A DNA stretch of 63,795 nucleotides, counting the filler, from Reclinomonas americana ATCC 50394 (Eukaryota), in NCBI GenBank assembly GCA_048213135.1. It is 20 parts of 20 records of this genome, joined end to end, with 100 filler letters (N's around TTAATTAATTAA, not from the genome) between each part and the next. Parts side by side here need not be neighbours in the genome. Positions count along the whole stretch, not along the records: positions 48,208 to 53,646 come from AFZH01020728.1; positions 53,747 to 55,220 come from AFZH01020729.1; 18 more parts are not named here. One strand, written 5' to 3'. A model generated the notes under the pieces. It saw only the letters and a list, made by a program, of their open reading frames with translations. It searched no databases and had not been told where the DNA came from. How positions within the stretch are numbered: position 1 is the first letter of the stretch; each line of letters begins with the position of its first letter. The translations under genes were made by a program, and so were the position numbers. Of this stretch, positions 51,957 through 54,900 are shown piece by piece.

Positions 51957-54900
51957 ATGATCATGATCATGGAGTCGCTGAAGAGCCGCTGGGAGAAGCA
52001 CGCGCGCATCGAGAGCTGTCAGTCACCGATCTTTTCTCTCTTGATCTCGCGCACTGACCACTCAGTGTGCAAAGAACAAGTGCACCAGTCTCCACTCGAG
52101 CTCGTTTACACCCTCCGTCGCTGGTTTGTCTGTGCTTCTTTTCCTTTCCGTGCGTGGTGTTTGGTGCTGCATGTGACCGCGCGCGCTCAGACAAAAAACA
52201 ACGCTGATATTTTATTTTTCCGACACGCACAGATTCTGAAGAACTGCCACCACCATGCATCGTCGCCTCCATACCGATGATGTTGACGAGCTTACTCGTC
52301 GCGTCTTCCCCACTTCTGCGCTGCTGGCTGCTGACGCGCAGCTCCGCCTGCCTGCCGATGCGAAGTACACGCTGAACCTCAGCAAACTCACCAAGCAGCA
52401 GGAGTCGATGCCGATTCAGCGCCTTGCGGAGACGTACGCGGCGCCGAGCGATCGCAATTCGCGTGTCGCTGTGCACGAGCTCTGCGTCTTGGACGAGCTG
52501 GCCATCCGAAACCTTCATCCTGGAGGATGCTCTGAAATTCTGTAAGTCAATATTTGTTGTTTGTGGTGTTTGTCAAATCTCCGAGATGCTGATCAACTTT
52601 CTGTGTGTGTATGCGTTCGGTAGCATTTCAGCACTCGGGGCCGGTGCCTTACACCCCACCTTCCAGTTGACTGTCATCGAACTCAAGGTCACCACGAGCA
52701 CTGGTTCGAATTCTGGCGTCAAGCAGATCACGAAAACTCGGTACGCCATCGTCGACGGACGGCACCGCGCGGTGGCCATGATGGCAATCGCCATGGACTA
52801 CGAGGGCAAGAACGAACTGCATCTTACCGCGCCGGATGCCACCAGGATGTGCACCATTCCAGTTAATGTGCTGAAGCCGACGACGCCTGTTGTCGTCCTG
52901 TGTCAGATTGCCGACGGTGTGTGCGTTTCCTCCTCTGCGCGTGACGCACTCGTGAACTGATGATGCGTCTTCCGAATATGCACAGCCGCCAACCAGATGT
53001 CGGAGACTATGGTCGCCATGACCGCGCTTGATACAATCAAGCATGTCGTCGCTCTCCGCACTCAGCTTGAGAAGTCGAAGTACGACCGGGCCGCAATCAA
53101 GACCCACTTGATCAATCGTCTCGCGGCAACCATGCGCGGCACGGATAAGGCAACGTCCTTGGTTCGCGTCGTGGACAGCATTGACGTTGGTGGGCAGGTT
53201 GAAGACCTTGCCAAGTTCGTCGACATGATGAGGTTTGTACAGCGGAGGTGTTGCTCGTCTTTCGTGTGGTCACTCTCTACTAATGCATGTGCACATCTAG
53301 TGATCTGGAGGAGGCGCGTGACGCTGACCCGACGACCTCAAAGTCCACGTCGCTGATCAAGCTGGAGATGCTGGATGAGAAGCGCTTCCGTGACCTCTCG
53401 CCGCTTGAGAAGGAGACGGTGCGTGGAGAGAGAGAGAGAGAGAGAGAAAGAGAGACGAATTCGAAGAGAGAGAGAGAGAGAGAAGAGAGAGAGAGAGAGA
53501 GAGAGAGAGAGAGAGAGAGAGAGAGAGAGAGAGAGAGAGAGAGAGAGAGAGAGAGACGACGACGTACGACGTACGTACGTACGTACGTACGTACGTACGT
53601 ACGTACGTACGTACGTACGTACGTACGTACGTACGTACGTACGTACNNNNNNNNNNNNNNNNNNNNNNNNNNNNNNNNNNNNNNNNNNNNTTAATTAATT
53701 AANNNNNNNNNNNNNNNNNNNNNNNNNNNNNNNNNNNNNNNNNNNNCGTCGTACGACGGTAGTACGTACGTACGTAGACGAGACGACGTCTACGTCCTCG
53801 TACGTACGTACCGTACGTCCGTCGTACGTCGACGACGAGACGAGAAGAGAGAGAGAGAGAGAGAGAGAGAGAGAGAAAAGGAATGCACAGCAAGACAGCA
53901 GCTGGTCGCTCATTGTTGTCTCATTGCAGTTCATCCGACACCTGTTCAAGCTGGACGTGCCTCTCGTCCTGTCATCTTCTGGCAAGGCGAAACAAGGGGG
54001 GCGTGTCACCGTTGGGCAACGCGCTGAGGAAATCGCGGCGCATGTCAAAGCCGTTAAGCAGACCGACAAGCTTCGCGATACGTGAGTGCTTTGTGGCTTG
54101 TTCTCCGCCTTCACTATTTCGTGAACTCAGCCCTTTTCTTGTACACGAACACGCAGGTGGCTGCAGAAGCGCAGTCGTGCGGAAGCAAGTGGAGACGAGG
54201 AGCAGGAAGCGCATTGGGCGCACGCCAGTCGCTTGCTTGGGGAGCTTCTGGAGGACTTTTACCCGTCGACAACGGCTCTCCTCACCCTCAGTCGTGTCAA
54301 CGCCTTCTGTGCGGATCTTGACGCGATGGTCGGGAAAGCCGAGGCTGCCGCAGCGGCTGCGGCTCGTGTTGATGCCGACGATTTGGCGGACGATGAGCGC
54401 GAGGCTGATGCCCCTGAGGACGACGAGGCAGCGTTACTAGCGGGAGAGGGCCACCTTCTGGGGCAGGTGCCGCTACCTGCAGCCGACGATGCCGCGGCCG
54501 TCCTCCACTACGCCAACGTCAACGCCTGCGGTGCCGTAGCGGCTGTCATACTGCCCGACGACTCCGACGATGATGTTATTATCCTCGACGACGATGACGA
54601 GGGGAATGGCAGTGATGACGACCAGGCCGTGGCGGTTCTGGGCGCTGGCGACGACGTCAAGACTCGCGCTCGACTGTTGGCCCATCAGAAGGTTGTTTCC
54701 ACTCCCGGTCCTACTGCCGTGAATGTTTGAGCGACTCAACTTTGCATTGTTTTGCGCAGAAAATGGGTGACCAGCCGTTCTTGCTAGAGGTCTTCTCCAT
54801 CTTCTACAAGGCCGAGCTGAACGCAACGACCGATTCGTTGAGTTCGCATCTCGAGGAGATTCGAGCACAGCTCGCCTTGTCTCCGAGTGCAATTTTGCAC

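Follow-up and report, generated by a model that had tools for sequence, protein, structure and literature searches.

A Ginger-like integrase transposon with a probable ParB-like accessory gene and shared palindromic repeats in a probable jakobid host

The window analysed here, a microsatellite-rich stretch of 63,795 nucleotides made up of 20 contigs with N linkers between them, contains at 48208-59803 an 11.6-kb segment whose best explanation is a single autonomous cut-and-paste transposon of the Ginger (integrase) type, lying in a tandem array of a probably jakobid host. The element is real and apparently intact. Its integrase and accessory genes diverge from a shared promoter region, and a 15-bp near-palindrome, TGYTYGAWTCRARCA, is common to this promoter and to three repeat arrays. 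The accessory protein probably begins with a domain of the ParB/Srx fold, and we regard the chances as evenly balanced that its main role is self-recognition and regulation, the protein binding the element's own palindromes and controlling the shared promoter and the local chromatin. The idea is not wholly new: ParB-like accessory genes have already been described in giant transposons of red and brown algae, in one case with adjacent repeats, and what is probably new is the pairing with an integrase-type transposase in a probable jakobid host. Such genes were noted in eukaryotic transposons only recently and, in the available texts, by homology alone, the binding of own repeats being so far a proposal. 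That such a pairing also occurs with an integrase-type transposase, and probably in a jakobid, hints at a module in wide circulation and not at an algal oddity. The element is also a compact test case, with one candidate domain, one 15-bp site present in two exact copies and an intact GxxR arginine. If the protein binds its own sites, it would show how a transposon tells its DNA from that of the host; if not, what remains is a Ginger-like element of the ordinary sort that carries an orphan gene.

The integrase gene

The integrase gene (48711..51659, minus strand) consists of ten exons joined through nine GT-AG introns, giving 568 codons with no stop. It encodes a retroviral-type integrase with an H..CxxC zinc finger, the catalytic triad D199-D271-E307 with a 35-residue spacing (D-D35-E), a chromodomain and a putative SH3-like segment recognised by eye. 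Pfam searches of the exons returned rve (E 1.2e-5), Integrase_H2C2 (E 0.0016) and Chromo (E 0.046), each from one exon and all below the curated Pfam cut-offs. Just one of the two His residues of the H2C2 finger could be placed confidently. The chromodomain was also found in a PDB search, in which CBX7 matched with E 0.017 and 11 of the 13 matches were chromodomain proteins; no homolog of the integrase was retrieved. The mobile-element setting proposed by the initial annotation is supported by these rve, H2C2 and Chromo matches on the opposite strand, together with the D-D35-E triad and the stop-free reading frame.

Because introns are present and reverse transcriptase is absent, the predicted protein would be a Ginger-type DNA transposase, to which the sequence features point. 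Ginger/TDD elements are described as carrying a Gypsy-like integrase with an H2C2 finger and a DDE triad, without reverse transcriptase or polymerase (PMC6839031, available text). The present element resembles that description by its H2C2 and D,D(35)E integrase and by the lack of any visible reverse transcriptase, polymerase or capsid gene, and differs from it by its chromodomain, by its large second gene and by the absence of a literal GPY or YPYY motif. The nine integrase introns and the lack of a reverse transcriptase upstream speak against an LTR retroelement. A possible last integrase exon at 48714-49020 (minus strand), with an uncertain splice junction, shows the Cys/His clusters YCSESC and WCEHCH, which may form a zinc finger.

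The accessory gene and its N-terminal domain

Head-to-head with the integrase gene and 595 bp away from it lies the accessory gene (52255..59121, plus strand), which has about 15 exons and some 1,600 codons and spans three assembly gaps. Its start ATG at 52255 stands in the context CCACCACC. A 13-exon model with consistent phases reads through 1,354 codons with no stop, and two more exons end at 59121. The splicing is inferred from the 14 junctions, of which 12 have the form GT..AG, one has lost its acceptor next to a microsatellite and a gap, and one coincides with an assembly gap. ACGT/CGT runs beside gaps (53557-53840 and 55149-55435), inside two introns, look like sequencing artefacts, and it is there that the acceptor is lost. 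Exon 1 (52255-52541) and exon 2 (52624-52916) are each followed by a frame-consistent GT-AG intron, and all the peptides on which the initial annotation had based its ParB proposal are present where it had placed them, joined through such introns: IRNLHPGG at the end of exon 1, LGAGALHPTFQLTV, YAIVDGRHRAVA and IPVNVL in exon 2, and IAD followed by AANQMSETMVAMTALDTI across the junction of exons 2 and 3.

A phmmer search of 1.84 billion representatives gave a sole match (E 3e-31), to a protein (P0002) labelled in EukProt as an EST of Reclinomonas americana, a jakobid, which is 94% identical to the exon-3 stretch (52998..53213, plus strand). This match indicates that the host is probably Reclinomonas americana or a close relative and that a related copy of the accessory gene is transcribed; a diverged second copy or allele exists. 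The EST reading frame ends after 72 residues, perhaps because that copy is damaged or the read contains an error. The search for eukaryotic homologs suggested at the outset, made with a single sequence as query, yielded this one protein and no algal match.

The probable ParB/Srx-fold domain occupies 52500..53050 (plus strand, exons 1-3) and contains two inserts of about 18 residues. Using the definitions of Boxes I to III from the available text of PMC12704722, we recognised a Box I-like SALGAGALHP, a Box II GRHR (52757-52768), the strand IPVNVL and a degenerate Box III (ADAAN). The GxxR of Box II is intact in YAIVDGRHRAVA, where it follows a hydrophobic strand and precedes a helix, and this strand-then-helix is the best-predicted part of the AlphaFold model (pLDDT about 61). 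In Box I, ISALGAGALHP aligns its G and P with ParB, yet the block scores -2.5 bits, and the spliced Box III junction reads IADAANQMS, without the EN dipeptide; in orphan ParBs, Box III is often divergent according to the accessible part of PMC12704722. The same source, as far as its text was available, describes orphan ParB-fold proteins as binding CTP, ATP or GTP, or in some cases nothing that could be detected, and their nucleotide specificity as not predictable from sequence. The intact GxxR suggests that the predicted domain may still bind an NTP.

Used alone as an ESM Atlas query, exon 2 returned at rank 1, with a score of 0.90, a cluster in which 11% of 63 members bear PF02195 (ParB_N), and the best ten named matches all belonged to one family or clan. 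The rank-1 match shares 122 of 256 features, against 170 typical of matches within the same family, and 4-10 of 100 shuffles also reach 0.9. The block YAIVDGRHR scores 11.2 bits, the other two blocks beside Box I scoring 4.9 and -1.5; the full block-profile score is reached by 144 of 1,500 shuffles and by 17 of 129 windows from other ORFs. When aligned by MAFFT with 23 trimmed ParB fragments, the domain keeps the G, P, G, R and A residues, and with full-length ParBs Box I is misplaced. In the controls, scores no lower than the real one came from 19 of 300 shuffles and from the reversed sequence; at least five of the nine invariant columns were matched by 24 of 300 shuffles, and here the reversed sequence scored higher. 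Shuffle tests of ParB likeness gave p values of about 0.006-0.1. No ParB match was found in Pfam, PHROGs or NCBIfam, and hhalign against ParB gave a probability of about 1%. Two AlphaFold folds, both made without exon 1 (which holds the first strand and an arginine), the first also including 23 intron codons, reached pLDDT 41 and 48, the second staying at 48 in a run with a ParB alignment supplied; a fold search with these two low-confidence models matched nothing meaningful. These scores are weak as negatives, because the red-algal ParB-like protein PAG3 had itself an HHpred best match of only E 0.29 (bioRxiv 2025.02.11.637652, available portion). The binding of PAG3 to its own element is given there as a proposal. 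Taken with the genomic context, the ParB/Srx domain of the initial annotation is retained as probable on the ESM rank, the profile rank given below and the GxxR motif; no library match appeared, and some shuffled sequences score as high.

Several published systems resemble this arrangement, all comparisons here being made with the available portions of the sources. PAG3 belongs to a giant Plavaka (EnSpm/CACTA) transposon of Bostrychia, in which a ParB-like domain occurs with adjacent inverted-repeat arrays (bioRxiv 10.1101/2025.02.11.637652, Petroll et al.), and is also reported with Mutator, Zisupton and Fanzor elements. As in the published description of PAG3, we find a probable N-terminal ParB-like domain, recognised only remotely, in a transposon accessory gene with inverted-repeat arrays nearby; unlike the PAG3 system, with its three accessory genes, the present element has one, beside an integrase-type transposase with a chromodomain, in a probable jakobid, and with no 2OG-oxygenase domain detected. 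In Ectocarpus, Sola1-1_Ec32 encodes a ParB plus MTase gene on the strand opposite its transposase (PMC12477816), and the present element likewise would produce a long, probably ParB-like protein from the strand opposite the transposase of a large DNA transposon. Compared by description, the Ectocarpus protein differs by its 1104 residues, its recognisable N4C/N6A methyltransferase domain and its Sola transposase, whereas here no MTase motif was found and the transposase is of the integrase type. ParB-HTH MTase fusions are also recorded in chlorophytes and chytrids (PMC4738411). With bacterial ParB/Spo0J and KorB, as far as the consulted descriptions go, our protein shares the GxxR Box II and, with less certainty, a Box I-like helix-G-x3-P and a predicted downstream helical region; it differs by its Box III without EN, its two long inserts, its much greater length, its spliced eukaryotic gene and the lack of a ParA-binding motif and of ParA. 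Within the literature covered, which included few subscription papers and left Repbase aside, no case was seen of a ParB-like gene accompanying an integrase-type transposase or occurring in a jakobid.

It is rather unlikely, in our judgement, that the ParB likeness is superficial, the gene being an unrelated accessory or captured one and the palindromes being sites of the integrase or of a host factor. The weak profile statistics would fit such a case, as would YAIVDGRHR being the sole well-scoring block, the lack of a fold match with low-confidence models, and an ESM signal that may rest on the same short motif. However, the ParB family had been named before the ESM search, which then ranked a ParB_N cluster first. 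With a profile of 13 diverse ParB domains, the exon-2 ORF ranks first of 1274 ORFs in the window (E 2.1; 4.9 bits, a score equalled by 32 of 5,000 shuffles), and the order of the motifs agrees with that of ParB. The context, with an opposite-strand transposase and palindrome arrays, also matches that of published ParB-bearing elements.

Palindromes and the proposed role of the accessory protein

The palindromes lie mostly in the non-coding DNA of the element. The left non-coding end (48208..48720) carries an exact copy at 48223 and an array of 5.8 units of 33 bp (48370-48561), every unit of which contains the variant palindrome TGTGCGAWTAGCACA. The shared divergent promoter region (51660..52254) carries an exact copy at 51747 and another palindrome at 51780, 33 bp apart. 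The right non-coding end (59122..59803) contains arrays of 2.4 units of 97 bp and 4.5 units of 21 bp bearing the 15-bp motif, mostly as one strong half-site with a weak half. Allowing up to three mismatches, TGYTYGAWTCRARCA has 30 matches in the window, where the chance mean is 15.8 and none of 100 shuffles is as high. The left end (513 bp) accounts for 7 of them, the promoter for 2, the right end (682 bp) for 10 and the accessory gene for 3; the integrase gene contains none, and 8 lie in the 50,791 bp outside the element, so that 19 of the 30 fall within 1,790 bp (1.8 kb) of its non-coding DNA. Thirteen copies, as units of the three tandem arrays, do not count as independent. Since the motif had been derived from the element's own sites, a held-out matrix test was added: trained only on the right end, the matrix gave its two highest ranks among 60,947 positions to 48223 and 51747. 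In the opposite direction the result was weaker, the right-end sites taking ranks 1 and 2 if symmetry was included, and ranks 2 and 4 if it was not, among outside matches. The motif recurs at a spacing of 21 bp five times and of 33 bp seven times, the latter in all three regions, and the phased repeats pointed out by the initial annotation are real; at spacings of 97, 108 and 132 the phasing is not clear. The strong half-site GAATCAAGCA has a lone copy outside the element, at 19411, probably by chance. With its TG...CA ends, the palindromic 15-bp site is like that of bacterial ParB in the descriptions available, and near the 16-bp parS in size.

In the mechanism to which we give about even odds, the accessory protein would bind the palindromes of the element as a dimer, through helices behind its N-domain, in the manner of ParB and KorB on parS-like sites. 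On the 21- and 33-bp arrays, the dimers would sit along roughly the same face of the helix, and the bound sites would mark the element as self. The bound protein would then control the divergent promoter and the local chromatin, by autoregulation or anti-silencing, its charged tail contacting chromatin. The pair of sites in the promoter fits a regulator better than a pure end-binding factor. Self-recognition is favoured by the domains and spacing of the integrase, the enrichment of the motif, the held-out matrix, the ESM match, the transcribed related copy and the algal precedents; against it count the weak ParB statistics, the lack of an HTH match, the ends lying in gaps, the position of the right-hand array on another contig of the scaffold and the non-independence of the array copies, and the palindrome could be read by the integrase instead. 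Two roles advanced by the initial annotation fared less well. For target choice by the ParB-like protein, the integrase's own chromodomain is a simpler explanation. Maintenance of the excised DNA found no backing, as the ParA-binding motif (L/F/I)G(K/R)G(L/F/I) is absent from the 1,354 residues scanned and no ParA-like match was seen among the element ORFs and exons scanned.

We think it unlikely that the protein is a true nucleotide-gated ParB clamp, which would load at the 15-bp parS-like palindromes, close on CTP or ATP and spread along the element, its spreading licensing transcription or bringing the element ends together. If true, the element would provide the first example of a ParB-parS switch at work in the nucleus of a eukaryote, and its self-recognition module, a portable one, would have passed between unrelated superfamilies of transposases, with a range from algae to Discoba.

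A role as transposition cofactor, in which the ParB-like protein would bridge the subterminal arrays by dimerisation or clamp spreading and so pair ends 11.6 kb apart, is the end synapsis of the initial annotation, and also seems to us rather unlikely. ParB bridges and spreads on DNA, the TnpA of CACTA elements binds subterminal repeats, and here the two end regions account for 17 of the 19 non-coding matches to the motif, with a helical-turn-like spacing, all of which would suit a cofactor. Against it, one of only two exact copies is internal, in the promoter some 3.5 kb away from the left end, and the available descriptions of Ginger elements (PMC6839031) mention no such factor. The movement of the algal ParB-like gene among unrelated transposase superfamilies, as reported in the text at hand, is moreover better accounted for by a transposase-independent role.

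The remainder of the accessory protein

Behind the probable ParB-like N-domain, the accessory protein comprises a helical region, about 460 unassigned residues that look globular, and a long acidic/basic low-complexity tail, the last 294 residues of the 13-exon model having 28% D+E and 16% K+R. Exon 3 is predicted to be all-helical, with low confidence, by AlphaFold, and exons 3-5 gave no match to an HTH family. By eye, a stretch of the HP-x.. type in exon 11 resembles beta-class MTases. We consider it quite doubtful that the protein is a ParB-guided enzyme modifying DNA or chromatin, with an eroded N4C/N6A MTase or another activity in the middle 460 residues marking its own element. Precedents, in the portions of the sources available, exist in Ectocarpus (ParB with MTase), in Bostrychia (ParB with a 2OG oxygenase) and in a phage ParB that activates a T-dioxygenase (PMC13229309). 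The exon-11 stretch also speaks for an enzyme, and ParB-MTase fusions are common in phages. On the other side, none of the motifs (D/S/N)PP(Y/W/F), FxGxG and DxFxG occurs in the 1,354 scanned residues, MTase profiles did not align with the protein, and the accessory exons have no MTase or oxygenase match in Pfam, NCBIfam, PHROGs or the ESM Atlas; a domain that is dead or very remote may nevertheless be present.

Extent and setting of the element

Both ends of the element fall in N gaps (48108-48207 and 59804-59903), where the TG...CA termini, the terminal inverted repeats and the 4- or 6-bp target duplication of a Ginger/TDD element would lie. Outside them, the left flank (47877..48107) is built from a tandem unit of 135-194 bp bearing a G7-AATT-C7 hairpin (z -2.05), and the right flank (59904..60250) of the same unit in unchanged orientation, picking up about 60 bp further along the unit than the point at which the left flank stops. 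The flanking units being continuous in type and orientation, they look like a single tandem array interrupted by the element, and this array is probably the insertion target. Further out, 330-440-bp units are common to both sides (46500-47085 and 60289-60964), and instead of being a target array the flank unit may belong to a larger, outer repeat. In the visible sequence between the flanks, gaps within the element excepted, just two genes were found.

That these genes do not form one mobile unit, and that we see instead an integrase that has been domesticated, part of some larger Polinton-like element or contigs joined by the scaffolder, is very improbable: the visible left and right end regions share no inverted repeat longer than 12 bp, both ends lie in gaps and the window holds no second copy, but the gap-free contig at 48208-53646 carries the integrase, the left array, the promoter palindromes and accessory-gene exons 1-4 together, one motif marks both ends, the flanks form one interrupted tandem unit, a diverged second copy or allele exists, and no reverse transcriptase, DNA polymerase or capsid gene is present in the visible sequence between the flanks.

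Neighbouring features

Elsewhere in the window, a dispersed repeat of about 160-300 bp (14873-15187 and 62962-63119), with inverted and direct pieces of at most 92% identity, is unrelated to the element. Between the two kinds of flank repeats lies an intronless ORF of 158 residues (47399-47875, plus strand), which by eye has a winged-helix-like part and a basic tail and whose lone Pfam match is a weak one to NTP_transf_6 (E 0.015). Immediately outside the left flank repeats, 45744-46193 (minus strand) encodes a ubiquitin-family domain (Pfam E 2e-13). Finally, 41950-43250 (plus strand) shows by eye a Cys/His-rich stretch of TRAF-like zinc fingers followed by 108-bp coiled-coil repeats, and is probably a host gene.
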